Positions 2,747 through 49,508 of a stretch of 64,000 bases of DNA are shown in pieces. The stretch is taken from contig NZ_JAMXFA010000001.1 of NCBI RefSeq assembly GCF_025370785.1, forward strand, positions 235,902 to 299,901, given 5' to 3'. This DNA comes from Laspinema olomoucense D3b. GTDB lineage: Bacteria; Cyanobacteriota; Cyanobacteriia; Cyanobacteriales; Laspinemataceae. Each line of letters starts with the position of its first letter. The stretch's first letter is position 1. The notes beneath the pieces are model-generated. The model worked only from the letters and a program-made list of their open reading frames with translations. It made no database searches and was not told where the DNA came from. A program made the translations under genes and the position numbers.

Positions 2747-3973
2747 TTAAACAAATTGAGTTACAAATTCATAGATTAAATCAATCCGTCCTTTGCGTAA
2801 TACAGCCGGATCTAATCGTTCGGTGGTGTTACAAGTCATTAAAAACACCAGCTTTTGTTGAGCGTTAATCCCCTCGGGTTCTAAGACACTTTGATATAAA
2901 GTGCCATCGAGTAAGCTGAGGATATGTTCAGTTTTATTACTGTGTTGGGCGGCTTCGCTTCCCCGGTCTTGGGCGAGGTTATCTGCTTCATTAATAATGA
3001 TGCAAATTTTTTCTAAATAACTGGGGGGAACGAAATTTTCTACGGCATCATGGTCCAGAATAAAAATCACATATCCCAAGGGAACTAGAATTTCTTTGGC
3101 AACGGCTTGGGTCCAAGCTGTTTTGCCTGTTCCTGGTGCGCCATGAACGAGGACGGCGAGTTGAGGTTGGGTAAAGATGGCCTCTTGGACGCGATCGCTA
3201 AAGCCTTGAATATCAGCAGGAAAGGTGCGAATCGGAAACTCGCTCTGAACTTGACCCACACGGCTTTGATAGCCACTGAGCATGACTGCTAGATTGTAGG
3301 TGGCTTTGTTAATCAGCGATCGCAAATCATCGGCAATCAGCGTATATTGAAATTGATTGCGGCCCGTATTTTGAATGCGCCCCAGGGGGTCGATTTGTAG
3401 CCAAATGTTCTGTTTTTTCCAATAGGCATAAACGATCCCCATTGTTTGAATGCGCTCCCAAGTGGAAAACCGCTCGATGGGATAATAAAAATACCGTTCT
3501 AGGTAATATTGGGTAATCAAATCGGGACGACCTAAAAGGTCCAGGACTTTGCAAACGGTAATCTCTTGGAGGCGTTTGAGGACGTAATCAATCGGGATGC
3601 TGTCCCGGCTGACGAATTGAACAACGGGGGTTTCTGCCGTGATCATATCTGCGCTGAGACAATTGGGTCCCGCCGGTGGGGGAGTAATGTAATCCCAAAA
3701 CTCATTAAAATCGCCTCGGGTGTATTCCGAAAATACATTTAAAATATTCGCCCACCACGTAAAATTTTGACGCCCTAACGCATCGGCAATATCACTACTA
3801 AAATCTAAGGTTTTGTGGGCTAATTCCCAGGGGTCTTTAGAGGCGAGATGGAAAAAATAACTCCAATCAAAGTCCCGGGATAAGGGTCGCCAACCCGCTC
3901 CCAGCAATCCCCGATCTTGGGTGGGGTTGCGATCGCGAAGCTCGTTTCCGTGGTCAAAGTTACTGAATGCCAT
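2747..3973 (-). CDS. AAA+ ATPase (classic clade) with a ~270-aa N-terminal domain of unknown function
   Basis: Walker A LVHGAPGTGKT, Walker B region ICIIINEADNL, and arginine-finger-like LRKGRID near the C-terminus. The N-terminal 270 aa have no recognisable motif. Confidence 0.7.
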   Translation of the reverse strand: MAFSNFDHGNELRDRNPTQDRGLLGAGWRPLSRDFDWSYFFHLASKDPWELAHKTLDFSSDIADALGRQNFTWWANILNVFSEYTRGDFNEFWDYITPPPAGPNCLSADMITAETPVVQFVSRDSIPIDYVLKRLQEITVCKVLDLLGRPDLITQYYLERYFYYPIERFSTWERIQTMGIVYAYWKKQNIWLQIDPLGRIQNTGRNQFQYTLIADDLRSLINKATYNLAVMLSGYQSRVGQVQSEFPIRTFPADIQGFSDRVQEAIFTQPQLAVLVHGAPGTGKTAWTQAVAKEILVPLGYVIFILDHDAVENFVPPSYLEKICIIINEADNLAQDRGSEAAQHSNKTEHILSLLDGTLYQSVLEPEGINAQQKLVFLMTCNTTERLDPAVLRKGRIDLIYEFVTQFV

Positions 3974-9485: not shown

Positions 9486-10889
9486 TTATGCCTCGGGATG
9501 CGGTTTTTCTGGGTCGGGTTTGGAGAGCGGAAGGATAACGCTAACGGTAGTGCCGAGATTAAGCTGACTGTCTACCCGAATCCAACCGTGATGATTTTCC
9601 ACGATCGCCCGGACGATCGCCAGTCCCAATCCAGACCCCGTAGAACCCCATTCCGGCGACTGGTGAGGTTCATGACTCCGCGCCGGGTCCACTCGATAAA
9701 AGCGATCAAAAATATGAGGCACCGACTCTGCCGGAATGCCGATTCCGCTATCTTTCACCGTAACTTGGACACCGCTATTGGCACTCGGGCGATTGCTCAC
9801 CCCGCTACATTCTAAGGTGATGGCAATTTGGCCCCCTTTCGCGGTGTATTGCAATCCATTACTGACTAAATTCGTAAACAGTCGCGCCAGTTGGTCCCAA
9901 TCTCCGGGGATGGTAAAATCCAGTCCCGGTTCAGTTTCTGGATCCATAAGGGGGGAGAGGGCGTGATTGCCGCTATCGGGCGGATCAATAATTTCTAATA
10001 CTAATTCAATGCCTTTTTCGGCGGCGATCGCCTCTTGTTCCTCCATCACTTCCATCAATAAGGCATCCATTGGCACAGGTTGTTTCCTCACTTTCACTAT
10101 GCCGCTATCTTGTCGCGCTAAAAAGAGCAAATCATCCACCAATCGTCCCATACGGCGCGTCAAGCGTTCGACTAACTGTAATTGCTGGCGATGGATGGGT
10201 GAATCTAATTCCGGGTCCGCCAGGGCTACTTGCACATTTGTTTGAATCGTGGCGATCGGGTTTCTGAGTTCATGGGAGGCATCGGAGGTAAACTGTTTGA
10301 GACGCTGGTAAGAATCCCGCACAGGTTTCATGGCTAATCCTGACAGTAACCAGGCGATCGCACTAATGGCAATTGCCATGAGGGAGGTTCCCAAACTTAA
10401 ATCAATAATTAATTGCCGAATCGGTTTGGTCACTTCAAACCAGGGATGACTGACTCGCAAATATCCTACCACTTGCCGTCCAATTTCTACGCGATCGGTA
10501 AATTGCCTCAGCAGTTGTCCTCCCGAAAGTTGTACCGTTTCCCCATTCTTTTTCGGGTGCAGGGGAATTTCTAAGGGTTCCCAAAGGGTAGACCACAATA
10601 ATTCCCCCGTGGGACTAAACCATTCTAAATCGATATGGTCATCTTCGACGGTTTTGGCATTGTTGCGGAAACTGGCGACAACATTTACAGTATATTGGCC
10701 GGTGTTGGGGTTTTCATCGATCGCCAGCGAGCGTTCCACCACTTCCACAACGTGCTTGAGGGTGTCATCAATGCGATCGATTAAGGTACTCCGCACATAC
10801 ACATAAAATCCCGTCGCAAACACCAGCAGCAACACTGCTGTGAGTGCCGCATACCAAATCGCTAACCGTCGGCGGGTGGCTTGAAACAT
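9486..10889 (-). CDS. sensor histidine kinase (2 TM, HAMP, HisKA, HATPase_c)
   Basis: H-box SHELRNPIATIQ. N-terminal TM helix, a second TM and HAMP around LGTSLMAIAISAIAWLLSGLAMKPVRDSYQRL. G2 box GSGLGLAIVRAIVENHHGW. Confidence 0.85.
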   Translation of the reverse strand: MFQATRRRLAIWYAALTAVLLLVFATGFYVYVRSTLIDRIDDTLKHVVEVVERSLAIDENPNTGQYTVNVVASFRNNAKTVEDDHIDLEWFSPTGELLWSTLWEPLEIPLHPKKNGETVQLSGGQLLRQFTDRVEIGRQVVGYLRVSHPWFEVTKPIRQLIIDLSLGTSLMAIAISAIAWLLSGLAMKPVRDSYQRLKQFTSDASHELRNPIATIQTNVQVALADPELDSPIHRQQLQLVERLTRRMGRLVDDLLFLARQDSGIVKVRKQPVPMDALLMEVMEEQEAIAAEKGIELVLEIIDPPDSGNHALSPLMDPETEPGLDFTIPGDWDQLARLFTNLVSNGLQYTAKGGQIAITLECSGVSNRPSANSGVQVTVKDSGIGIPAESVPHIFDRFYRVDPARSHEPHQSPEWGSTGSGLGLAIVRAIVENHHGWIRVDSQLNLGTTVSVILPLSKPDPEKPHPEA

Positions 10890-11091
10890 TTCTGCGATCG
10901 TCCTATAGGTTTCTTATAATTGTAGAGTGAATTTTCACTAGAGAGGTACAGAGATTTGGTATTCAGTATGGGAGAATTGAGGAGATAGTAAGGGAGGGGG
11001 CGAGCGGGCCTAAATCAAGGGGTTAACCATCTAAATTAATCGGCCCAAATTTTGTCAACCTCCTGCCACTCTTTACAAAAAAATAAAAATT

Positions 11092-11120
11092 TTACAACAA
11101 CCCGATGAATGTGGTATAAT
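11092..11120 (+). promoter_or_regulatory. sigma70-type promoter with extended -10 (TTACAA, 17 nt spacer, TGgTATAAT) for the ATPase/DUF4276 cassette
   Basis: ttacaa at 11092-11097 and tggtataat at 11112-11120, about 50 nt upstream of the ATG at 11170. Confidence 0.4.
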
Positions 11121-11169
11121 TTTACCAATGTAGAACTGATCTTAAACATGACCCAACAACAAACCTATT

Positions 11170-12315
11170 ATGAATGGTTTTGAAAAAATAGAGATTTATG
11201 GATTCCGTCGCTTACGCACAGTCCAAGTCGAAATGAGACCTTTAACGGTCATCATCGGGGCCAACGGAGTCGGGAAGACATCTTTTTTGGAAATGTTCTC
11301 CCTGTTATCAGAATCTGCAAAAGGTCAGTTACAGTCAAAAATTTCTGAATTTGGGGGCTTGAGTGATATATTGACGCGAGATCAGGCTGATAATTTGCGC
11401 GTGGTCCGGTCAGCTTATTTAGAAAAATATGGACAGTTTAACTATTTTTTAAAATTAGACATTAAAGGCCAACAATTTTATGAAATAGAGCAGGAATCTC
11501 TTACTAGATCGCCTTTGTTGTTTACTTACATAAATTCCAGCGGTTTAGATGTTCAATATTTTGCTAATGACAATCAGGTTCCGGTCCGTCCAAATTGGGA
11601 ACATAATCCGTTAGAAACCTCGCTTTCACAAGTTCCTAAAATGTACCAAGAAGCGGAAGCAGTGCGTAAGCAATTAGCCTCCTGTAGCTTTTATCGAGCT
11701 TGGGAATTGAATTTATCGCCTACCAGCCCCGTGCGATTACCGCAAGCGATGCGTCCGGCAACTTTACCCGGAAATCGGGGGGAAGATTTAGTTTCCTGCC
11801 TTTATAATTTACGGGAAACAGACCCGGATCGATTTGAACTGATAAGCGATACTTTGTCTGCTGCCTTTCCTAGTTTTGAACGCTTGAGTTTTCCCCCAGT
11901 AGCAGCAGGCACATTGGCATTGACTTGGAAGGAGAAAAATTTTTCGCATCCCCTTTATATGCATCAACTTTCCGAGGGGACGGTGCGGTTTTTGTGGTTA
12001 GTCACCCTACTGCAAAGTCCGAATTTAACTGCTGTAACGCTTATCGATGAACCGGAAGTCAGCTTGCATCCAGAATTGTTGCGATTGCTGGTGGATGTGA
12101 TGCGAGAAGCATCGAAACGAACTCAACTGATTGTTGCCACCCATTCTGATCGCCTGATCCGATTTTTGCAACCAGACGAAGTGCTGGTATGCGATGCAGA
12201 TGAAGAGGGTTCCACAACCATGACTTGGGCGGATTCTTTAGATTTAGAGAAATGGTTGGAAGAGTATAGTTTAGATGAACTGTGGGCGATGAATATCATC
12301 GGAGGGCGATCGTGA
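11170..12315 (+). CDS. ABC-type ATPase of the AAA15/AAA21 (OLD/AriA-like) class
   Basis: Walker A IIGANGVGKTSFLE, Walker B plus D-loop LIDEPEVSLHPELL, and H-loop VATHSDRLIRF. 381 aa with a long helical insertion between Walker A and B, typical of SMC/ABC-like defence ATPases. Confidence 0.8.
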   Translation: MNGFEKIEIYGFRRLRTVQVEMRPLTVIIGANGVGKTSFLEMFSLLSESAKGQLQSKISEFGGLSDILTRDQADNLRVVRSAYLEKYGQFNYFLKLDIKGQQFYEIEQESLTRSPLLFTYINSSGLDVQYFANDNQVPVRPNWEHNPLETSLSQVPKMYQEAEAVRKQLASCSFYRAWELNLSPTSPVRLPQAMRPATLPGNRGEDLVSCLYNLRETDPDRFELISDTLSAAFPSFERLSFPPVAAGTLALTWKEKNFSHPLYMHQLSEGTVRFLWLVTLLQSPNLTAVTLIDEPEVSLHPELLRLLVDVMREASKRTQLIVATHSDRLIRFLQPDEVLVCDADEEGSTTMTWADSLDLEKWLEEYSLDELWAMNIIGGRS

Positions 12316-12920
12316 AAATTGCTATTTTAGTTGAAGGCGCAACTGAAAAAGCCTTGATACCGAGTTTGCGGCGCTTTCTGAATTCCCGTTTACCAGGAAA
12401 AATGCCTAAATTACAGCCAAAACCTTATCATGGACGGATTCCGAAAAAAGACAAACTTAAAAGTGACGTAGAAAAGCTGCTGAGTGGCAAGGATGCTTAT
12501 GATGCAGTGATTGCCTTAACCGACGTTTATACTGGAACCGAGGATTTTAAAAATGCAGCCGATGCTAAACAAAAAATGAAAGAATGGGTAGGAAACAATC
12601 CTAACTTTTATCCCCACGCTGCACAACATGATTTTGAGGCATGGCTTTTACCGTTTTGGCCGACCATTCAAAAGTTAGCCAAACATAATAAATCTGTTCC
12701 TAGCGGCAATCCGGAGAAAGTGAATCATCATAAACCGCCCTCGAAACATATTCAAGAAATTTTTGAGCAAGGCAAATCCCCCAGAAGTTATAGTAAAATT
12801 CGGGATGGTTTAAAGATTTTAGAGGAAAACGATTTGATGGAGTCTATCGAGGTTTGTTCAGAACTCAAGGCGTTTATTAATACAATTTTGTTGTTATGTG
12901 GGGGTGAAGAAATTCTGTAA
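12312..12920 (+). CDS. DUF4276-like / TOPRIM-like small protein; start overlaps the ATPase stop (GTGA)
   Basis: The GTG at 12312 overlaps the TGA of the upstream gene; the track ORF is 12282..12920. The N-terminus VKIAILVEGATEKALIP resembles the first TOPRIM motif (hydrophobic strand then EG). An acidic TDVYTGTED follows. A ~200-aa partner of AAA15 ATPases is the pattern I recall for DUF4276. Confidence 0.55.
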   Translation: MKIAILVEGATEKALIPSLRRFLNSRLPGKMPKLQPKPYHGRIPKKDKLKSDVEKLLSGKDAYDAVIALTDVYTGTEDFKNAADAKQKMKEWVGNNPNFYPHAAQHDFEAWLLPFWPTIQKLAKHNKSVPSGNPEKVNHHKPPSKHIQEIFEQGKSPRSYSKIRDGLKILEENDLMESIEVCSELKAFINTILLLCGGEEIL

Positions 12921-13057
12921 AGTGCGATTAATTGAGGATGAGCGCCCTTCAAAAGCAATATTTTATACTAAGTTTTAGAAGAATAGAGACGATTAAGATA
13001 GCTAATCAACCCACAGGTTTTTCTCCTGGGGTTGATCTAGCTTAGGAGTTGGGATGA

Positions 13058-15229
13058 CTATACCGATACAGGTATCGCCCAAGGTTGCCATGCTTTTTGC
13101 TGGACCGAAATGGTGCCACTACGGACCGAGGCATCCCAGCAAGTGCGATCGCCTTCGCGCCAAAACCGTAAGTCTATGGAGGAATCCCCCACCTCTAAAC
13201 CGTACAGGGTCAAGTCGGGTAACCAATTGGGCAAATAGGGATCAACATATAAGCACCCTTGGGGTGCATTCGCTTGTAATCCCAATAGGGCCTGGATTAG
13301 GTGGAAGACGGAACCGGCAGCCCAAGCTTGGGGTATATTTGCTTCAATATAGGGGACGGGAAATGCTCCTATCTGGCGTTTTGTCCCGGCATAGACTTCG
13401 GGAACCCGATAGCAGGCGAAATGGCTGGCTGTCTCGAAAATATCCGCTGCTACACTTGCAACGGCTTCATGGAAGCCATAGCGTTTGAAGCCGAGGGCAA
13501 TGATGCCGTTATCATGGGGCCAGACGGACCCGAGATGATAGGAAAAGGGGTTAAAAGAGGGATGATTTGAGGACAAGGTGCGAATTCCCCAACCACTGGA
13601 CATATCGGGTTCTAGCAGCCGTTTAACCACCCGTTGAGCGCGTTCTGGACTGACGATGCCACTCCAGAGGCAATGACCCGGATTTGAGGCGATCGAGCCT
13701 ACCGGCTGTTTATCTGGATCTAGGGTTAAGGCATAAAATCCCAAGTCTTCACACCAAAAGCGTTCCTCAAATTGCACTCGCAGTTTTTCGGCTTTGCCTT
13801 GTAATTCGGTGGCGCTATCCTTCTCACCGAGTGCCGCAAAGACTTCCGCCATCCGCATCCAAGCATCAAAGACATAGCCTTGGAGTTCACACAGGGCTTT
13901 TGGGGATTTGACTTGTGATCCATCGGGATAGACGATTGAATCTCCGGAGTCTTTCCAGCATTGGTTTTCGATGCCTTTTTCTGAGCGCACTTGATATTCC
14001 TGGAAGCCATCCCCATCGAGATCACCATAGCGATCGATCCAGTCCAAACAGCGGAGGGCGACATCGCGGTAATCTTTCAAGAGAGAGTCATCTCCTAACC
14101 ATTTCCAAGTTTCGTGAAGGACGATTGTATAGAGAGGGGTGGTATCCGCTGCACCGTAATAAGGCGATCGCGGACTTTTTTTCAAGTAAACCAACTCCCC
14201 ATGACGCAGTTCATGGAGGATTTTCCCCGGTTGTGCATCATGCCAGTCACTATATTCCTTCGCCTGAAACTGTCCTAATTTTTGGAGTGCACCTCGGGCA
14301 AACCCGGGATGAATAATTTGATTTTGCAAGCTGGCGGTTAAGCTATCGCGACCAAATAGCGCCACAAATTTGGGAACTCCCGCTGCGGCAAGCCACACAT
14401 CCGGAGCCATATCGTAATCATAGAGACGCATCGCGCTCATATCTTCGAGACTCTGGCAGTACAGTCGCTGGACATCTTCATTCGAGGTTTCCATCGTGGT
14501 GCAGGTATCTTGCCACTGTCGCTGCAATTTTTGGATGTTTGTATCAACATCGGGTTTAATCGCTTCTTCATAGCACAAATCGAGCGGTTCATGACAGTGT
14601 TCGTTATCAATCAGAAGGTAGTAGCAGCAAGCGTGCCAACTTGCACGGGCTTCTAATTCAACCTCAAAGGTGAGGCGACCATTGGCATAACGTGGGGGTG
14701 AGGTGAAGTGATTCCAATGGGCGATCATACATCGATAAAAATCCCCATTATTATAGGTATGGCGCAGTTTATACTCTTTTTTATCCCACTCGGTTTCAAT
14801 TTGCCCCCGGCGCACGAATTCCCCCGATTCAACTTCAAAAATATCTGCAAAGTCTGAACTGATCTCCAAATCTAAATGAAAGTTGACCGATTCGAGGCTA
14901 TGATTAGTAATATTTAGATCTTCATGAATCCCCTGTTCTACAGTCCGAGCAATGGTTAAGGATAGCGCCCCTTTGGGAATTTCTCCGTTTTTGCTAGAGA
15001 CGCTGGGATTTGTTAAATAAATTTTTGTGGCATAATAGCGCGTGACGGACGAAGTGAGCCGAACCCAAGGTTTATTGTCTATAAAACAGGCATATTCACT
15101 TAAAAAGCGGGTATCATCGGCAAAAATTCCTTGAAACTTGTCGCCTTGAATTTGGCCATCCAGTTCAGAAACCATGAAGATGCTGCCGTTATTAATCGTG
15201 AGAAAAGACGGTTCTACAGGGATTTTCAT
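13058..15229 (-). CDS. glycogen debranching enzyme (amylo-alpha-1,6-glucosidase family; bacterial GDE_N + GDE_C)
   Basis: 723 aa with motifs GVPKFVALFGRDSL, PGKILHELRHGEL and DYRDVALRCLDWI, consistent with the GDE_C (alpha/alpha)6-barrel catalytic domain. Confidence 0.75.
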   Translation of the reverse strand: MKIPVEPSFLTINNGSIFMVSELDGQIQGDKFQGIFADDTRFLSEYACFIDNKPWVRLTSSVTRYYATKIYLTNPSVSSKNGEIPKGALSLTIARTVEQGIHEDLNITNHSLESVNFHLDLEISSDFADIFEVESGEFVRRGQIETEWDKKEYKLRHTYNNGDFYRCMIAHWNHFTSPPRYANGRLTFEVELEARASWHACCYYLLIDNEHCHEPLDLCYEEAIKPDVDTNIQKLQRQWQDTCTTMETSNEDVQRLYCQSLEDMSAMRLYDYDMAPDVWLAAAGVPKFVALFGRDSLTASLQNQIIHPGFARGALQKLGQFQAKEYSDWHDAQPGKILHELRHGELVYLKKSPRSPYYGAADTTPLYTIVLHETWKWLGDDSLLKDYRDVALRCLDWIDRYGDLDGDGFQEYQVRSEKGIENQCWKDSGDSIVYPDGSQVKSPKALCELQGYVFDAWMRMAEVFAALGEKDSATELQGKAEKLRVQFEERFWCEDLGFYALTLDPDKQPVGSIASNPGHCLWSGIVSPERAQRVVKRLLEPDMSSGWGIRTLSSNHPSFNPFSYHLGSVWPHDNGIIALGFKRYGFHEAVASVAADIFETASHFACYRVPEVYAGTKRQIGAFPVPYIEANIPQAWAAGSVFHLIQALLGLQANAPQGCLYVDPYLPNWLPDLTLYGLEVGDSSIDLRFWREGDRTCWDASVRSGTISVQQKAWQPWAIPVSV

Positions 15230-17832: not shown

Positions 17833-20511
17833 ATGATCAAGAAAAATAGTAGAGTCAGGAGTTGCCAAACCGTGATGTATTGGGGTCATTATTATCTATC
17901 TATTTTTAGCTTGATGAGTGCCTTGCTATTTTTGGACGGAGGGTTAGGACACAAATCCCTCCAGGCGCAGGTTATACCGGATAATACCCTTCCGAATCCT
18001 TCGGGGGTTCAGATCAACGGCAATACCCTCACGATTGAGGGGGGAACTGCTGCCGGTAGTAATTTGTTCCATAGTTTCCAGGAATTTTCTATCCCGACGG
18101 GAACTGCTGCACTTTTTAATAATTCCACCACTATCGCTAATATTATTACTCGCATTACCGGAGGCAAACTGTCCCAAATTGATGGGGCGATCGCCGCTAA
18201 TGGCAGCGCGAATTTATTTTTAATTAATCCCAGTGGCATTGCCTTCGGACCGAATGCCACCCTGAATCTAGGCGGTTCTTTTGTCGGGAGTACCGCCCAC
18301 AGTGTGTTATTTCCTGACGATCGCGCTTTTAGCGCCACCAACCCTGATTCATCCCCACTTTTGAGCGTGAATGTCCCCATCGGGTTACAATATGGGCCCA
18401 ATCCCGAGAGCATCTTTGTGAGGGATTCGGTTCTAACTGTGCTGCCGAATCAAACTTTAACCCTAGTTGGGGGTGAGATTACCCTGGAGGGGGGGCAATT
18501 ACGGGTTCCCGGTGGAACTGTCACTTTGGGGGGAATCTCCGAGGCGGGAGTGGTGGAATTACCAGGGGGAAACGCACTCAAACTGCCGGAAACCGTCGAG
18601 CGATCGCCACTCCATCTCACGAATGGGGCGCGAGTGGATGTGGCCGGTGCAGGGGGTGGAAGTATCGCCATTCAAGTCGAGAATCTGCTGATTTCAGGGC
18701 AGTCTGAGATTCGCGGGGGGATTGCGCCAGGGTCAGGAGAACCCGGTGCACAAGCAGGAAATATCGAAATTGATACCACGGGAAACATTGTTTTAACGGA
18801 AGAGAGTGCGATCGCCAATGAAGTCCAACCCAACGGGGTTGGCGATGGCGGTAATATCACTTTGAATACTACCACCTTTTCCGCCACAAGTGCGATAATT
18901 TCTACTAGCACATCCGGGGAAGGGGATGGCGGTAAACTGCAAATTACCGCCCGCGAGTCGGTGGTATTCGATGGACAGGGGAGAGAAGATTTCATCACCA
19001 TCGCCTCGGCAGATGTAGCACCCGAAGGGGTCGGAAATGCAGGCGGCATTGAGATTCAGGCGGGTTCTGTGTTGGTCAAAGATGGGGCAGGCATGATCAC
19101 GGGAACCCGGGGTCAGGGGAATGGTGCACCCCTGGTAATTCGCGCCTTGGAGTCGGTGGTTTTTGATGGATTGAATTCCAGTAACGATGTGCTAAGGCCC
19201 ACAGGGGCGGAAAGTACCGTAGACCCGGAGGCAATGGGAAATGCGGGAAGTTTAGAGATTGAGACGGCAGTATTACGGATTCTGAATGGGGCGAATGTGG
19301 GTAGTACCACCTTTGAGGCGGGGGATGGTGGTCCTGTGCTTTTGCAGGCAACGGAAGTGATGGAATTTGGGGGAGTCGATCGCGTTGGCAATCCGGTGAT
19401 TGTTTTTAGTGATACTTTGGGAGAAGGGAATGGAGATAATTTACGGATTGAAACTCCGAGGTTGATTTTGCGGGATGGCGCACAGATTAGTGTGGGTACA
19501 TTTGGCGCTGGAGATGGGGGAAATTTGGAGATTTTGGCAACTGAGGCGATTGTTTTATCCGGTGCAGTTCCGGCAATAGAGGGGGGATTTTTCTTCCCGG
19601 ATGAGTCTGGAATCCTATTTCCTACAGGAATTTTTGCTGCTTCTACAGAGACGGGGAATGCGGGGACGATGCGCTTGCAGACGGGACAGTTAATTTTAGG
19701 CGATCGCGCCATCATTTCCGCCAGTAGTGAGAAGACGGGAATCGCCGGGAATATTGAAATTGTGGGGCGGCAGATTGTGGTTAACAATGCTGCGATCGCC
19801 GCAGAAACGGTGCAAGGGGATCAAGCGAATATCTTTATTGAATCGCGGGATATCCAGTTGTGGAACCAAGGGGGAATTACCACAAATGCCAGTGGGAGTG
19901 GGACGGGAGGGAATATTGCGATCGCTACAGATACGTTAGTTGCCGTAGAGAATAGTGATATTACAGCGAATTCCAGCGCCAGTTTTGGGGGTCGCGTGGC
20001 GATCGCCGCCCAAGGCATCTTGGGGACTAATTTTCGCACAGAACTCACGCCACAAAGTGATATTACCGCCACCTCCGAACTCGGGGCGGAGTTTAGCGGC
20101 AGTGTCACAATTAATACCCCTGATGTTAATCCCTCCACGGGATTAGTAGAATTACCCGAAATGCTGGGTCAAGCGAGGGATAATAACTTTGTGGGTTGTG
20201 CCTTATCCGATGAGAATTCTTTTACCATTTCGGGACGAGGAGGATTACCCACGGACCCGACTCAACCCCTCCAAACCCAACCGATTTGGCATGATTTACG
20301 CAACTTTTTCCAAGATTTAGAGGGGGAAACGGTTACCGTTGAACCTCCTCGCCGTCGCACCCCTTCCTCTACAAATCCGTCTTCCCCACTCCAGGAAGCG
20401 ACTGCTTGGCGACGGAATGCGCAAGGAACAATTGAGTTAATGGCGGCGATACCCGAGGGAAGCGTTTCTTTTCCCGGGTTGCGATCGCCTGAGTGTCAAC
20501 CCATTGAATAA
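17833..20511 (+). CDS. two-partner-secretion (TPS) exoprotein: filamentous-haemagglutinin-type N-terminal secretion domain plus beta-helical repeats
   Basis: Signal peptide, then the TPS domain NPSGVQINGNTLTIEGGTAAGSNLFHSFQEFSIPTGTAALFNN ... ANLFLINPSGIAFGPNATL (haemagg_act signature). The rest is Gly/Asn/Thr-rich beta-helix-like. Confidence 0.8.
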   Translation: MIKKNSRVRSCQTVMYWGHYYLSIFSLMSALLFLDGGLGHKSLQAQVIPDNTLPNPSGVQINGNTLTIEGGTAAGSNLFHSFQEFSIPTGTAALFNNSTTIANIITRITGGKLSQIDGAIAANGSANLFLINPSGIAFGPNATLNLGGSFVGSTAHSVLFPDDRAFSATNPDSSPLLSVNVPIGLQYGPNPESIFVRDSVLTVLPNQTLTLVGGEITLEGGQLRVPGGTVTLGGISEAGVVELPGGNALKLPETVERSPLHLTNGARVDVAGAGGGSIAIQVENLLISGQSEIRGGIAPGSGEPGAQAGNIEIDTTGNIVLTEESAIANEVQPNGVGDGGNITLNTTTFSATSAIISTSTSGEGDGGKLQITARESVVFDGQGREDFITIASADVAPEGVGNAGGIEIQAGSVLVKDGAGMITGTRGQGNGAPLVIRALESVVFDGLNSSNDVLRPTGAESTVDPEAMGNAGSLEIETAVLRILNGANVGSTTFEAGDGGPVLLQATEVMEFGGVDRVGNPVIVFSDTLGEGNGDNLRIETPRLILRDGAQISVGTFGAGDGGNLEILATEAIVLSGAVPAIEGGFFFPDESGILFPTGIFAASTETGNAGTMRLQTGQLILGDRAIISASSEKTGIAGNIEIVGRQIVVNNAAIAAETVQGDQANIFIESRDIQLWNQGGITTNASGSGTGGNIAIATDTLVAVENSDITANSSASFGGRVAIAAQGILGTNFRTELTPQSDITATSELGAEFSGSVTINTPDVNPSTGLVELPEMLGQARDNNFVGCALSDENSFTISGRGGLPTDPTQPLQTQPIWHDLRNFFQDLEGETVTVEPPRRRTPSSTNPSSPLQEATAWRRNAQGTIELMAAIPEGSVSFPGLRSPECQPIE

Positions 20512-34744: not shown

Positions 34745-36781
34745 ATGAAAGTGTTTAAGGGATGGATGAAATTAGTTTTGGCTATGACATTGGTGGCGAT
34801 CGCTGCTGATCCTGCCATCACCCAGACAAACCAGTCGGATATCACAGGACCCCTAACTCCAGAGCCGGTATTACCTGTAGAAGAACCCCCTGTAGAAGAA
34901 CCCCCTGTAGAAGAGCCTCCTGTGGAAGAACCGCCAGTGGAAGAGCCTCCTGCAATTATACCAAGCGGAGATATACTCCCTTTAGAAACTCCCACAGAAA
35001 CTCCCACAGAAACTCCCACAGAAACTCCCACAGAAACTCCCACAGAAACTCCCACAGAGACTCCCACAGAGACTCCCACAGAAACTCCCACAGAAACTCC
35101 CACAGAAACTCCCACAGAGACTCCCACAGAAACACCTGGGGATAGCCCAGTAATCCCTGTTAACAGCCCAGGGGAAGTGCCAGCACCGATTCCCATTCAA
35201 ACCCTTGAACCAATTAACACTCAAGCGCCCGAACCCAGCGCCCCGGTTGTCATCCCGGAGAATCCCCAGGTTCCCCGTGAGGAGGAAGTTCCTCCAACGG
35301 TGGGTGAGAATAATCCAGAACCGGACCCCACCACAGAAAGTACCAATCCGATAGAGGGTCAGATTCTCGAAGGGGGTGATAGCACAACGGAAGAGGCACA
35401 ACCCATGACTCCCCTATCGGACCAAGAAGTCGATCGCCCGGGTTATGAAACTCAGTTAGCCGTTGCTGATGTTGGGGTGGCGGTTCAAATGTTGGAAGAA
35501 TTTCAGGCAATGGAGTTTAGCAATTATCTAGCGGTGGAGTTATTGGGGGAAACGGCGACTCCCGATGAAATTGCCCAAAAATTGTATGATTTGTGGCAAG
35601 AAACTGACAATAAGAGTGCATTTATTTATGTCTCAGCCTTAGCAGAGCAATTAGAACTGGTGATGATTTTCCCCCAGAATTTTAGAGTAGCCGGGGGCAG
35701 TTCAGACTTAGTGGTTTCAGCGGATTTAGCCCAAGGACTGATTGAGAGAACGAGTGAGGTAGCTGTTCGCCAAACCGTGCCAAATATCTCTCGGGAAGAG
35801 CTGATTGCACAGGTGCAAAACTTGCGAGCAGAACTGACTAATCCCAGAAGAATAAACAGCCAGAGTTACTTACCGATCGCCCAACAACTCTATCAGTCCT
35901 TGATTGCTCCAATGGAAGCACAATTGAAAGCTAATGGGATTGAAACCTTAGTTTTTTCGATGGATTCTGGGTTGAGAACCCTTCCCCTGGCGGCATTACA
36001 TGATGGCGAACAGTTTTTAATAGAAAAATATGCCGTTGCTTTAGTCCCCAGTTTTGGCTTAACTGATGTCACCTATTCTGATATCCGCAACCGAGAAGTG
36101 TTAGCGATGGGTTCTGCTATTTTTGAAAACCTCAATCCTCTGCCTGCGGTACCTAGTGAGTTGCAAAATATTGTGAGCGAACCCTGGAAGGGAATTGTTT
36201 TCTTGAATGAACAATTCACTGCCGCTAATTTCCGACAAATTAACCAGGAAAAACAATTTGGAATTATCCATTTGGCAACTCATGCGGAATTTCAAGGGGG
36301 AAATTTGGATAACTCTTATATCACGTTTTACGATGGCCGAGTCGGACTCAACCGAATTCGAGAGTTAGCCACGGAACTCGGGTGGAATACCTCGCAAAAT
36401 CCTCCCATTGAACTCTTAACCCTAAGTGCTTGTCGGACGGCAGTAGGAGATACCGAGGCGGAGTTAGGATTTGCGGGGTTAGCGGTGCTTTCTGGGGCTA
36501 AGGCATCCTTAGCCAGTTTCTGGTATGTTAGCGATGCAGGCACTCTGGGATTAATGAGTGAATTTTATTCCCAATTAGGGGAAAAACCACTGAAAGCCGA
36601 AGCTTTACGGCAAACCCAACTGGCGCTGTTAAGGGGAGAGGTGCGCCTAGAAAATGGGATGTTAGTTCTCTCTAATGGCAAAACCGTCCCCCTCCCACCG
36701 GAATTGGTAGAACAAAAAACGCCGAACCTATCTCACCCTTATTTTTGGTCGGCGTTTACTCTAATTGGGAACTGGAATTAA
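34745..36781 (+). CDS. CHAT-domain (caspase-like) protein with signal peptide and low-complexity PVEEP / ETPT tandem repeats
   Basis: The C-terminal half has the CHAT His/Cys dyad context (HLATHAEFQGG ... LLTLSACRTAVGD). The N-terminus is a signal peptide followed by (PVEEP)x5 and (ETPT)x~13. Confidence 0.75.
   Translation: MKVFKGWMKLVLAMTLVAIAADPAITQTNQSDITGPLTPEPVLPVEEPPVEEPPVEEPPVEEPPVEEPPAIIPSGDILPLETPTETPTETPTETPTETPTETPTETPTETPTETPTETPTETPTETPTETPGDSPVIPVNSPGEVPAPIPIQTLEPINTQAPEPSAPVVIPENPQVPREEEVPPTVGENNPEPDPTTESTNPIEGQILEGGDSTTEEAQPMTPLSDQEVDRPGYETQLAVADVGVAVQMLEEFQAMEFSNYLAVELLGETATPDEIAQKLYDLWQETDNKSAFIYVSALAEQLELVMIFPQNFRVAGGSSDLVVSADLAQGLIERTSEVAVRQTVPNISREELIAQVQNLRAELTNPRRINSQSYLPIAQQLYQSLIAPMEAQLKANGIETLVFSMDSGLRTLPLAALHDGEQFLIEKYAVALVPSFGLTDVTYSDIRNREVLAMGSAIFENLNPLPAVPSELQNIVSEPWKGIVFLNEQFTAANFRQINQEKQFGIIHLATHAEFQGGNLDNSYITFYDGRVGLNRIRELATELGWNTSQNPPIELLTLSACRTAVGDTEAELGFAGLAVLSGAKASLASFWYVSDAGTLGLMSEFYSQLGEKPLKAEALRQTQLALLRGEVRLENGMLVLSNGKTVPLPPELVEQKTPNLSHPYFWSAFTLIGNWN
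34872..34950 (+). repeat. 15-nt tandem repeat x5 (cctgtagaagaaccc; encodes PVEEP) inside the CHAT gene
   Basis: Seen directly in the sequence. Confidence 0.8.
34985..35136 (+). repeat. 12-nt tandem repeat x~13 (gaaactcccaca / gagactcccaca; encodes ETPT) inside the CHAT gene
   Basis: Seen directly in the sequence. The antisense strand yields a spurious GVSV-repeat ORF. Confidence 0.85.
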
Positions 36782-46436: not shown

Positions 46437-49400
46437 ATGAAACAATCTAATTTTAATCTGGCAACTTTCCATCCAGAGGCTGAGGGACAAGGATTAACAA
46501 AATCCCCCCAAACCCACAGTAGCCAGCCCCAAAAAATCTTATTAGGGAGGGGTATAATATTAAGCTTCCTGGCCCTCTTAACTCTCCTCCTATGGCCCGA
46601 CCTGCTGAGGAATCTCTTCGCCAAGGAGGGTTTTATCCCCCACGGCCATTGTTATCTGTGGAAGCCCTCCTTAGTCTGGCTTCATATTACCTCAGATAGC
46701 CTGATTGGGATATCCTATGTTGCCATATCTACCAGCCTTGCTTATTTCGTTTATAAAGCGCGGCGCAATATCCCCTTTCATTGGATGTTTTTGGCCTTCG
46801 GTGCCTTTATCATCGCTTGTAGCATGACCCATTTTCTAGCGGTATGGACCTTGTGGAATCCCACCTACTGGTTATCAGGAAATGTCAAATTGCTCACTGC
46901 CCTCGCCTCAGTTACCACAGCAATTTCTTTACCCCCGTTAATCCCCAGAGCGTTAAAATTATTGGACTCGGCTCAGATGTCTGAAGAACGCCGCTTGAAT
47001 CTGGAACGGGCAAACCAAGAACTGCAAGCGCTCTATCGTCAACTTAAGCAACTGGATGAACTCAAAAGCCAATTTTTCGCCAATGTCAGTCACGAATTGC
47101 GGACCCCCCTGGCGTTGATTTTAGGTCCGACTCAGAAGTTGATCGGCGATCGCCAACTTTTGGACGAACAACGCCGGGACTTGCTCGTAATCGAACGCAA
47201 TGCCCGAATGCTGCTCAAACAGGTTAATGATCTCCTGGATATCTCTAAGCTAGAAGCTGGCAAAATGGAACTCGCAGCAGTTCCTCTGGACTTAGCCAGT
47301 TTGATCCGCCAAGTAGCGGCGAACTTTGATGCATTAGCCTTTGAACGGGAGATTAACTTAACCGTCCAGACTCCGGAGTCCTTGGGGACCCAATTGGACC
47401 GCCAAAAAATCGAGCGGGTGGTTTTAAACTTACTCTCCAATGCGTTTAAGTTCACACCCCTGGGTGGCAAAATTGACTGTTCTCTCTCTCTAGCCGAGGG
47501 GGAGAATAAGCCGGTGACGATCGCCATCCAAGATAGTGGTCCAGGGGTCCCCCAGGAACGGCGGGAAACCATCTTTGAGCGGTTTAGCCAAATTGAAGGA
47601 GGGAGCACCCGTCGCTTTGGCGGGACTGGGTTGGGGTTGGCGATTGTCAAGGAATTTGTAGAACTTCATCAGGGAACTATTACGGTTGCGGATGCACCTC
47701 TAGGGGGGGCGATGTTTACCGTCCAGCTTCCGATGGAGGTTTTTCCAGATATCCCCAAGACGGCTTCAGAATCTTCCCTGTGGGATGATCTGGCAGAAGC
47801 GGCGATCGCGGAACTGAAGCTAGAAGTGGAGACATCTCCCCGGATTCTGGTCCCGAATGACCCTCGACCCCTGGTTTTAATTGTCGAAGACAACCCGGAA
47901 ATGAATCGCTTTGTCTGCGATATCTTGGGACGGGACTATCAAATTGCTACAGCGTTCAATGGGGAGCAAGGATTGGAACAGGCACTCACCCTCAATCCAG
48001 ATTTAATCATCAGTGATGTGATGATGCCAGAAATAGGGGGTGATCGCCTGGTGTCTTTATTACGCAGCAATCCCGATTTCGCCAATGTTTCAATTATCAT
48101 GTTGACGGCGAAAGATGATGATGATTTGCGGGTACAGTTATTGCGCGAAGGGGTGCAAGATTATCTGATGAAACCCTTTTCTGTGGAAGAACTGCGGGCG
48201 CGGGTGGGGAATGCGATCTCCATTAAACGGGTGCGGGATTTGTTACAGCAGGAGTTAACCTCTCAAAGCTCTGATGTAGAAGTCCTCGCCTCGGAACTGG
48301 CTTTCCATAAGCGCGAACTGGAAGCAGCGCTCATCCTCCAGCAGCAACAGTCGGAAGAATTAGTTAAAGCCAATCAAATCAAGGATGAGTTTTTATCGAT
48401 TGTTTCCCATGAACTTCGCACGCCCCTCAATTCGATTCTGGGCTGGACCCAGTTGCTTCGCACTCGCCAGCTCAATGAAACCACGAAGATAAAAGCATTA
48501 GAAACCATCGAGCGCAATGCCAAACAACAGGTTAATCTGATCGAGGATATCCTGGATGTTTCCCGGATCATTCGCGGTAAAATTCGCTTACAACTGCGTC
48601 CCGTTAATTTAATTCCTCTTGTGGAAGCTGCCCTGGATACGATGCTTCCCACGGCTGAAGCTAAGGGAATTCATATTGATTTCAACTTTGACCCGGCGAT
48701 CGCCTTGGTTTCGGGAGATAGCGATCGCTTGCAGCAAGTGGCTTGGAATTTATTGTCTAATGCGGTCAAGTTTACTCCTAGCGGAGGCTCAGTTTCCGTG
48801 GCGATCGCCCAGACGGATTCCTTTATTACCCTCCAGGTACAGGATACGGGAATTGGCATCAATCCAGACTTTCTCCCCCATATTTTTGACGGATTCCGCC
48901 AAGCGGATAGTTCTACAACTCGCGCCTATGGTGGATTAGGCTTGGGATTGACCATCGTCCGTCATCTAGTGGAACTCCACGGGGGCCAGGTCGAGGCTTT
49001 GAGTGAGGGCGAAGGCCAAGGAGCCACCTTGATTGTCCAGTTACCCATTCTGCCAAAACCGCCACAAGACGAGGGCGATGAGACTTCCTGTTCCCGGGAA
49101 GACAGTGTGTCGAGTGAACTGTGGGCCCTGGATGGGTTACAGGTGTTGGTGGTGGATGACGACCCGGATACAGGAGACTTAATGGAAGCGATGCTGACAG
49201 ATTATGGGGTGCGGGTTCGGGTTGTGACTTCGGTTTCCCAGGCGATCGCCCTGATGGACCAATTCAAATTTGATGTTTTAGTCAGCGATATTGGAATGCC
49301 TGGAGAAGACGGATATCACTTAATTCACCAAATCCGGCAGCATGAAGGTGACAGCAACAGTCATATTCCGGCGATCGCCCTGACGGCATTTGCCTCGGAG

Positions 49401-49508
49401 GAGGACCGTGCCCAATCCCTCCTAGCAGGCTTTCAAAAACACCTCTCTAAACCTGTAGAACCGGCCCAATTAGCTAAAGTCCTCGCTCAATTAGCCTCGA
49501 CCCTGTGA
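46437..49508 (+). CDS. hybrid histidine kinase with ethylene-binding-domain-like N-terminus and two tandem HisKA-HATPase-receiver modules
   Basis: TM region ITSDSLIGISYVAISTSLAYFV ... WMFLAFGAFIIACSMTHFLAVWTL ... VKLLTALASV aligns helix-by-helix with the Arabidopsis ETR1 ethylene-binding domain, including the Cu-ligand Cys and His (ACSMTH vs LCGATH). Then H-box1 NVSHELRTPLALILG, receiver1 LVLIVEDNPEM...ISDVMMPEIGG, H-box2 IVSHELRTPLNSILGW, and receiver2 LQVLVVDDDPDTG. Confidence 0.85.
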   Translation: MKQSNFNLATFHPEAEGQGLTKSPQTHSSQPQKILLGRGIILSFLALLTLLLWPDLLRNLFAKEGFIPHGHCYLWKPSLVWLHITSDSLIGISYVAISTSLAYFVYKARRNIPFHWMFLAFGAFIIACSMTHFLAVWTLWNPTYWLSGNVKLLTALASVTTAISLPPLIPRALKLLDSAQMSEERRLNLERANQELQALYRQLKQLDELKSQFFANVSHELRTPLALILGPTQKLIGDRQLLDEQRRDLLVIERNARMLLKQVNDLLDISKLEAGKMELAAVPLDLASLIRQVAANFDALAFEREINLTVQTPESLGTQLDRQKIERVVLNLLSNAFKFTPLGGKIDCSLSLAEGENKPVTIAIQDSGPGVPQERRETIFERFSQIEGGSTRRFGGTGLGLAIVKEFVELHQGTITVADAPLGGAMFTVQLPMEVFPDIPKTASESSLWDDLAEAAIAELKLEVETSPRILVPNDPRPLVLIVEDNPEMNRFVCDILGRDYQIATAFNGEQGLEQALTLNPDLIISDVMMPEIGGDRLVSLLRSNPDFANVSIIMLTAKDDDDLRVQLLREGVQDYLMKPFSVEELRARVGNAISIKRVRDLLQQELTSQSSDVEVLASELAFHKRELEAALILQQQQSEELVKANQIKDEFLSIVSHELRTPLNSILGWTQLLRTRQLNETTKIKALETIERNAKQQVNLIEDILDVSRIIRGKIRLQLRPVNLIPLVEAALDTMLPTAEAKGIHIDFNFDPAIALVSGDSDRLQQVAWNLLSNAVKFTPSGGSVSVAIAQTDSFITLQVQDTGIGINPDFLPHIFDGFRQADSSTTRAYGGLGLGLTIVRHLVELHGGQVEALSEGEGQGATLIVQLPILPKPPQDEGDETSCSREDSVSSELWALDGLQVLVVDDDPDTGDLMEAMLTDYGVRVRVVTSVSQAIALMDQFKFDVLVSDIGMPGEDGYHLIHQIRQHEGDSNSHIPAIALTAFASEEDRAQSLLAGFQKHLSKPVEPAQLAKVLAQLASTL

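Follow-up and report, generated by a model that had tools for sequence, protein, structure and literature searches.

What does a compact pair of overlapping genes do for the filamentous cyanobacterium that keeps it among its housekeeping genes? The pair considered here lies at positions 11,092 to 12,920 of a 64,000-nucleotide stretch of Laspinema olomoucense D3b (NCBI RefSeq assembly GCF_025370785.1, contig NZ_JAMXFA010000001.1, positions 235,902 to 299,901 of the forward strand; "the window" below is this whole stretch), where the list of open reading frames (ORFs) places two plus-strand ORFs between two minus-strand genes. The two proteins are very probably an ABC ATPase and an OLD-like TOPRIM nuclease of the HEC-01 family. 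As a whole, the explanation we consider reasonably probable is that the cassette is a stand-alone HEC-01 member with a role in defence, in which the ATPase controls the nuclease; in effect, the pair is most likely an OLD-type nuclease whose two halves are encoded separately, by translationally coupled genes. The locus reveals no new kind of system. The two genes and their junction are:

11170-12315, plus strand: gene 1, an ABC ATPase of 381 amino acids (HEC-01A type), with its stop codon at 12313-12315
12301-12315, plus strand: coupling junction, with GGAGG at 12301-12305, a 6-nucleotide spacer and a GTG within the GTGA that holds the gene 1 stop
12312-12920, plus strand: gene 2, a DUF4276 protein of 202 amino acids (HEC-01B type), with a TOPRIM domain (about residues 1-105) and a helical domain (about residues 106-202)

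Identity of the two proteins

Both proteins matched PADLOC models of a single system along most of their length. Residues 4-380 of gene 1 aligned to positions 6-361 of the 363 in HEC-01A (PDLC04175, 4.4e-73), and residues 2-193 of gene 2 to positions 14-224 of the 230 in HEC-01B (PDLC04188, 3.4e-17), while the AriA, AbiLi, mad3, GajA and PtuA models gave far lower scores on gene 1. By these matches the pair is of a type that PADLOC already lists as a candidate anti-phage system, HEC-01, and thus is a largely known kind of element. An earlier reading of the letters alone (the sequence-only reading) had proposed a split-OLD defence candidate, which agrees with the PADLOC assignment. It had also named no characterised function for such pairs, and in this it fell short, as the pair is catalogued as HEC-01 and the related Mad3 and Mad4 are genetically required for MADS defence.

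Gene 1 matched the Pfam families AAA_21 (3.7e-38) and AAA_15 (8.1e-23) and carries every ABC ATPase motif, listed here with conservation counted over 42 homologues:

11257-11280, plus strand: Walker A, GANGVGKT, residues 30-37 (G30, A31, N32, G33, G35 and K36 invariant)
11968-11982, plus strand: ABC signature-like LSEGT, residues 267-271 (L267, S268 and G270 invariant)
12034-12072, plus strand: Walker B, VTLIDEPE, residues 289-296, and D-loop, SLHP, residues 298-301 (T290, I292, P295, E296, L299 and P301 invariant; D293, E294 and H300 near-invariant)
12136-12147, plus strand: H-loop, ATHS, residues 323-326 (T324 and S326 invariant; H325 near-invariant)

The near-invariance of these motifs, together with the Pfam matches, bears out the earlier assignment of gene 1 to the ABC-type AAA15/AAA21 ATPases with Walker A, Walker B/D-loop and H-loop. 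In fold comparison the model of gene 1 scored highest against the SMC head (18.3), Rad50 (18.0) and Thermus OLD (16.5), followed by PtuA and the retron Eco8 OLD protein (16.3 each), GajA (14.9) and AriA (14.3), with transporter ATPases at about 11. No close solved relative was found by sequence for either protein. By family and predicted fold, gene 1 is an SMC/Rad50/OLD-like ABC ATPase, the counterpart of the ATPase half of an OLD nuclease.

The mechanical ORF call begins gene 2 at GTG 12282; because all homologues open with M-K/R-I-A-I-L-V-E-G, the true start is taken to be GTG 12312, and these N-termini agree with the GTGA overlap of the gene 1 stop that had been proposed from the letters. 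Gene 2 matched Pfam DUF4276 (PF14103) over nearly the full profile (positions 1-191 of 192; 6.4e-32, 111.8 bits against a gathering threshold of 30.2). Two related families remained below threshold, namely RloB (PF13707; 0.0074, 16.9 bits against a cut-off of 31.5) and OLD-like_TOPRIM (PF20469; 0.011, 16.7 bits against a cut-off of 23.2, aligning residues 4-22), and neither phmmer nor a profile search of the PDB (A1) with gene 2 gave a meaningful match, so the link to solved structures came from fold comparison only. The AlphaFold model, built from a 49-sequence alignment, reached a predicted local distance difference test score (pLDDT) of 94.8 and a predicted template modelling score of 0.90. 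Its elements run in the order beta1 (2-7), alpha1, beta2, alpha2, beta3 (65-72), alpha3 and beta4 (99-105), followed by a helical half in which helix 108-123 comes after strand 99-105.

Foldseek ranked the class 2 OLD enzymes of Burkholderia and Xanthomonas first, through their C-terminal catalytic regions (E 2e-4, probability 1.00), and PARIS AriB next (3e-3). A separate fold comparison gave 10.8 for a class 2 OLD C-terminal region (6nk8_B, over 156 aligned residues), 10.5 for the uncharacterised PH0156 (2p62_B), 8.4 for GajA, 8.0 for Thermus OLD and 7.4 for AriB. Gene 2 is therefore modelled as equivalent to the complete C-terminal catalytic part of an OLD nuclease, with both TOPRIM and helical domains, and the earlier description of it as DUF4276/TOPRIM-like holds on both the profile and the predicted fold. 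The lengths are also comparable, since 381 and 202 residues add up to 583, near the 594 of Bp OLD, and gene 2 is about as long as the catalytic region of that enzyme (390-594).

Predicted active site of gene 2

Conservation in gene 2 was counted over 49 aligned relatives of 30-75% identity. Five residues (E8, G9, E12, D71 and C182) were kept in all 49, E135 and K162 in 48, E109 in 46, and an acidic residue (D/E) at position 107 in 44. The conserved stretches are:

12327-12347, plus strand: LVEGATE, with the TOPRIM glutamate E8 and a second acidic residue, E12, in the beta1-alpha1 loop and alpha1
12516-12530, plus strand: LTDVY, with a single invariant aspartate, D71, at the end of beta3
12627-12644, plus strand: HDFEAW, with D107 and E109 opening the first helix that follows beta4, the proposed metal B residues
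12711-12743, plus strand: PEKVNHHKPPS, a DUF4276-specific loop signature (P134 in 47/49, E135 in 48/49, N138 in 45/49, P142 in 45/49 and P143 in 48/49)
12789-12797, plus strand: YSK, with the near-invariant K162, the proposed catalytic lysine (Y160 in 47/49, K162 in 48/49)

In Bp OLD, metal A is bound by E400, D455 and D457 and metal B by E404, T506 and E508, and the catalytic lysine is K562 (PMC6755086). We propose that E8 corresponds to E400, E12 to E404, D71 to D455, D107/E109 to T506/E508 and K162 to K562, a mapping drawn from order, spacing and secondary structure rather than from superposition. E8 and E12 share the +4 spacing of E400 and E404, D71 stands at the end of beta3 as D455 does, and 53 residues separate E109 from K162, compared to 54 between E508 and K562. 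The near-invariant loop PE-x-VN-x3-PPS (residues 134-144) has no described counterpart in OLD enzymes.

Distribution and evolution of the cassette

Gene 2 is identical (100%) to a database protein of Laspinema olomoucense, and more than 3,500 clusters at 90% identity were retrieved for each of the two proteins. At 50% clustering the family comprised 422 representatives (E <=0.001). The closest matches, at 63-75% identity, came from Nostocales, Oscillatoriales, Acidobacteria and Ca. Ozemobacter, and the distribution is patchy across phyla. To describe gene context outside Laspinema, 12 loci were sampled, seven from the clade of 63-75% identity and five at 31-45% identity. The ATPase gene lay directly upstream of the DUF4276 gene in all 12 (31-75% identity), and the pairing of the two genes is obligatory. 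Judged from junction sequence or gene coordinates, a 4-nucleotide ATGA/GTGA overlap joined the genes in 11 of the 12, the remaining locus (L035) having a 1-nucleotide overlap. The pair stood alone in 11 of the 12 as well; in the seven closer loci (Nostoc, Microcoleus, Ozemobacter, Acidobacteria, Sphaerospermopsis and two metagenome contigs) it was surrounded by differing, mostly housekeeping genes. The exception (L029, 43% identity) has the gene order HmaC-DUF7680-HEC-01A-HEC-01B-HmaB, and its HEC-01 genes hit the two PADLOC models also hit by the window pair.

No neighbouring gene recurred across the sampled loci. Toxin-antitoxin genes were seen a few kilobases from the pair in two of them, Zeta_toxin and ParE_toxin in Nostoc (L021) and TacA1 with an acetyltransferase in Sphaerospermopsis (L030). 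In L029, the protein encoded between HmaC and HEC-01A (3132-3578, plus strand) matched DUF7680 (1e-34) and has no PADLOC model.

Within the Laspinema clade the cassette occupies the same site with the same gene order in three other genomes: L. palackyanum D2a, Oscillatoria sp. HE19RPO and a metagenome-assembled genome. Synonymous divergence (dS) in these genomes was 0.27-0.42 for the cassette and 0.30-0.43 for the flanking genes, and the ratio of nonsynonymous to synonymous divergence (dN/dS) was 0.09-0.13 and 0.10-0.13, respectively. The cassette is therefore older than these species and is kept by purifying selection. A recent insertion can be ruled out, since all three relatives carry the cassette at the same site with flank-like dS. 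The sequence-only reading had looked to orthologous loci lacking the insertion; no such locus was seen, the three relatives all carrying the cassette and more distant cyanobacteria having no synteny here in which an empty site might be found. As candidate ends of a mobile element, the flanking inverted repeats (I1 and I8) were rejected as short and weak, and no integrase or transposase was present among the ORFs scanned against Pfam.

The cassette has a guanine-plus-cytosine (GC) content of 0.420, the window a mean of 0.480 (standard deviation 0.030), and only 3.4% of equal-sized windows are that low. At third codon positions it is 0.40 in gene 1 and 0.34 in gene 2, compared to 0.51 and 0.48 in the two flanking genes. 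In the three Laspinema-clade relatives the cassette has a GC content of about 0.43 and the flanking genes 0.49-0.50. The cassette was below its host in every genome examined for composition, including the following loci:

Nostoc (L021): cassette 0.38, rest of locus 0.42
Microcoleus (L023): cassette 0.41, rest of locus 0.45
Ozemobacter (L025): cassette 0.55, rest of locus 0.675
Acidobacteria (L027): cassette 0.45, rest of locus 0.54

The AT-richness noted in the sequence-only reading is thus real yet moderate. Nucleotide similarity between the window and loci from other phyla stops at the two coding regions. Because GC content is below the flanks in all Laspinema-clade genomes and close homologues occur in other phyla, a horizontal origin holds at the level of the family; the claim of horizontal acquisition stands in this form and not as a recent insertion. 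A conserved position combined with ordinary GC content had been named as a finding that would speak against acquisition; the position is indeed conserved, while the GC content is still under that of the flanks.

Defence or another role

There are several potential explanations for a pair of this kind. If the cassette serves in defence, the two proteins would associate in a complex, with the ATPase keeping the nuclease inactive and serving as a sensor. An invasion signal, for example a phage protein or foreign DNA, would alter the state of the ATPase and license the nuclease, which would then cut nucleic acid through a metal-dependent site formed by E8, E12, D71, D107/E109 and K162, with restriction of the invader or abortive infection as the outcome. 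DNA would be the more likely substrate, because the closest folds are those of the DNA-cutting OLD and GajA proteins and because loss of the MADS methylase is tolerated only with loss of mad2 or mad3; a tRNA target, as for PARIS AriB, would be the less likely alternative.

Published work on relatives bears on this proposal. Payne et al. defined HEC-01 as an ABC ATPase with a TOPRIM protein, from embedding in Hma, and noted its conserved metal site relative to Bp OLD (bioRxiv 10.1101/2024.01.29.577857). In E. coli B, a HEC-01 cluster from a cold seep gave protection from one or more of the phages T4, T5 and T7 (10.1101/2024.09.26.614923). For MADS, mad3 and mad4 were needed for defence, and deletion of the methylase gene mad5 succeeded only where mad2 or mad3 was removed as well (10.1101/2023.03.30.534895). 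The study of Menshen placed DUF4276 and RloB in the Toprim superfamily and equated DUF4276 with Mad4 (PMC12065111), and the PARIS paper counts MADS3-4 and AbiL among the systems that combine an ATPase with a TOPRIM protein (PMC11464382).

A number of observations must be set against a defence role or against the proposed mechanism. The HEC-01 representative that Payne et al. tried in E. coli failed to protect against any of the phages used (10.1101/2024.01.29.577857), and both published defence tests of HEC-01 used members outside the present clade. Searches with tblastn found no homologue in phage and plasmid collections, and pattern scans of IMG/VR with both proteins found none either (PHROGs likewise gave no match for gene 2). 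The cassette has been inherited stably across four Laspinema-clade species amid housekeeping genes, with no neighbouring defence genes, and such stable residence is less typical of defence systems. The structure model of gene 1 is of moderate quality (pLDDT 67.7), with residues 180-206 (11707-11787) and 231-266 (11860-11967) below 50 despite very high sequence conservation; these segments may become ordered only on dimerisation or in contact with the nuclease. In gene 2 the residue map derives from spacing and secondary structure, and position 73, where the second aspartate of the OLD DxD motif would stand, is aspartate in 0 of 49 relatives, the motif reading D-V-Y. Lacking this second aspartate, gene 2 has a metal A site unlike the one in the characterised OLD enzymes. 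The single substitution D457A in Bp OLD had no visible effect (PMC6755086), and for this reason nuclease activity of gene 2 is plausible, by analogy, despite its single-aspartate site.

A more novel possibility, which we regard as doubtful, is that the stand-alone clade (about 381 plus about 200 amino acids, with 65-75% identity between members from cyanobacteria, Acidobacteria and Ca. Ozemobacter) is a class of OLD-like system in its own right, additional to those known and self-sufficient. Its marks may be the single-aspartate TOPRIM site and the DUF4276-specific PE-x-VN...PPS loop, and its trigger, substrate or role could differ from those of PARIS, Gabija and P2 Old. Such a class might have a chromosomally fixed function in genome maintenance or against plasmids rather than in classical phage defence, which would fit the stable vertical inheritance in Laspinema and the lack of matches in the phage and plasmid collections searched.

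It is unlikely that the cassette is a chromosomal pair for DNA repair or maintenance, in which an SMC/RecF/Rad50-like ATPase and a TOPRIM protein would process ends or lesions in the manner of RecF-RecR or SbcCD. Vertical inheritance in four species with flank-like dS and a dN/dS of about 0.1, the housekeeping neighbours in 11 of the 12 other loci, and the failure to find the pair in the phage, plasmid and viral collections searched are what such a pair would show. However, a repair function does not readily account for the patchy spread across phyla at 65-75% identity, the GC content under that of the host in every genome examined, or a genomic position that is never shared outside the genus. 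In addition, the best profile matches are to models derived from defence systems, one relative (L029) sits inside an Hma system, and Mad3 and Mad4 have a genetic role in defence.

Quite unlikely, too, is a selfish addiction module resembling a toxin-antitoxin system, with the TOPRIM nuclease as toxin and the ATPase as its neutraliser, whose loss would kill the cell and which would bring no net anti-phage benefit. The tight two-gene layout, with its stop/start overlap kept everywhere sampled, the absence of partner genes beside the pair, and retention at one locus across species are consistent with addiction, as are the self-toxicity implied on removal of the MADS methylase and the solved-structure entries that label AriA an antitoxin and AriB a toxin. 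Against it, purifying selection across phyla is as strong on one gene as on the other, and the ATPase retains its full set of catalytic motifs, which a sensor needs and a simple antidote would not. The distinction is also not a sharp one, since PARIS combines addiction-like behaviour with defence and the two explanations overlap.

That the cassette is the orphaned effector arm of an Hma- or MADS-type methylation-dependent system, needing partners elsewhere in the genome or no longer working, is very unlikely: the 43%-identical relative embedded between HmaC and HmaB, the definition of HEC-01 through such embedding and the lack of defence by the stand-alone HEC-01 of Payne et al. speak for it, but the pair is stand-alone in 11 of the 12 non-Laspinema loci sampled, no methylase or helicase occurs among the window ORFs scanned against Pfam, the intact motifs and a dN/dS of about 0.1 argue against decay, and the cold-seep HEC-01 cluster protected E. 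coli when cloned alone.

A stand-alone HEC-01 element with a defence role remains the explanation we prefer. HEC-01 and Mad3/Mad4-type pairs are widespread and the data on their role in defence conflict; the present locus shows a highly conserved, self-contained version in filamentous cyanobacteria, supplies concrete candidate catalytic residues, and suggests that negative results in E. coli may stem from which host or phage was used.

Setting of the locus

Upstream and downstream of the cassette lie the genes and regulatory candidates listed here:

9486-10889, minus strand: histidine kinase gene (HisKA and HATPase_c, Pfam)
11091-11120, plus strand: promoter-like site TTTACA-18 nt-TATAAT with a TG extension, matching 11 of 12 consensus positions, 50 nucleotides 5' of gene 1
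13003-13036, strand not assigned: conserved hairpin, a possible bidirectional terminator, between the convergent gene 2 and debranching-like gene
13058-15229, minus strand: glycogen-debranching-like gene (GDE_N_bis, Pfam)

Both flanking genes had been named correctly from the letters, as a histidine kinase and a glycogen-debranching gene. The predicted promoter likewise agrees with the extended -10 promoter claimed earlier, its -10 region and TG being kept in all three Laspinema-clade relatives (L001-L003); the promoter scan found such sites no commoner across the region than in shuffled sequence. The hairpin is near-invariant in the same three genomes, and the stretch 12990-13050 has a folding energy of -24 kcal/mol (z -5.0). 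It has no clear U tract, and the terminator scan made no call there. In L. palackyanum D2a (L001), an additional ORF of 469 amino acids (12269-13678, minus strand), with one weak match to an SBBP beta-propeller repeat, lies between the region upstream of the cassette and the histidine kinase gene; it is missing from the window, L002 and L003.

Among about 20 window ORFs scanned against Pfam there were no mobility or defence genes, nor any methylase, helicase or Hma genes. The 64-kb window contains no tRNA gene, and no intergenic structured RNA matched Rfam at E <=1. Several genes farther along the window were noted in passing. An 892-amino-acid protein with a two-partner-secretion TPS domain (3.7e-58) is encoded at 17833-20511 (plus strand), in a region of strong positive GC skew, reaching 0.44. 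Vault protein homologues are rare in bacteria, and the ORF at 30677-33325 (minus strand, 882 amino acids) has the complete Major Vault Protein architecture by Pfam, with Vault repeats (2.6e-67), MVP_shoulder (2.3e-55), Vault_2, Vault_3 and Vault_4. Near it, separated by an uncharacterised ORF of 352 amino acids, is a gene at 34745-36781 (plus strand) for a 678-amino-acid CHAT-domain (caspase-like protease) protein (9.4e-64). A hybrid histidine kinase at 46437-49508 (plus strand) carries an ethylene-receptor-like ETR1_N domain (2e-35) at its N-terminus, two HATPase_c domains and two receiver domains.

Comparison with known systems

Membership in PARIS, Gabija, Septu, MADS and AbiL was considered and rejected in each case, as a defining feature fails. 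PARIS (AriA/AriB, a class 4 OLD-like system) is often carried by phages and satellites, whereas the window clade was not found in the viral collections searched. Its AriB is a DUF4435 protein of about 300 amino acids, whereas gene 2 hit HEC-01B models only in PADLOC and DUF4276 instead of DUF4435 in Pfam; the PARIS-like candidate of the sequence-only reading is not PARIS proper. Gabija has the UvrD-like helicase GajB beside GajA, while no helicase gene adjoins the cassette. For AbiL, the RloB match of gene 2 is under the cut-off, and for Menshen, the NsnA/NsnC context is not present at the cassette.

MADS of P. aeruginosa SMC4386 is closer, as Mad3 and Mad4 are likewise an ABC ATPase and a DUF4276 protein, and gene 1 matches the PADLOC mad3 model at 1.1e-22. 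However, gene 1 scores 89.8 bits on the NCBIfam MAD3 equivalog (NF047739), which has a cut-off of 420, the mandatory mad6-8 and methylase genes were not seen among the window ORFs scanned, and the immediate neighbours are unrelated. Compared to the OLD family proper, in which the ATPase and TOPRIM domains share one polypeptide, the window pair is encoded by two ORFs, and where OLD enzymes have a DxD motif, gene 2 has the first aspartate only. The class 2 enzymes (Bp, Xcc) have a UvrD-like helicase partner that the pair lacks, and the class 1 enzymes (P2 Old, Ts OLD) are also single polypeptides, unlike the split pair; the modelled fold of the gene 2 catalytic region, a TOPRIM with a helical domain, is nevertheless of the OLD type.

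HEC-01 (Hma-embedded candidate 1; PADLOC-DB v2) has the same layout as the cassette, an ABC ATPase followed by a TOPRIM-like protein. The family was found through Hma embedding, whereas the window pair is flanked by histidine kinase and debranching-like genes, and such embedding is probably not required for a HEC-01 pair to be detected. The most notable features of the pair are that the second DxD aspartate is uniformly lost, that the two-gene layout is strict across phyla, and that its chromosomal residence is unusually stable for a presumed defence element.

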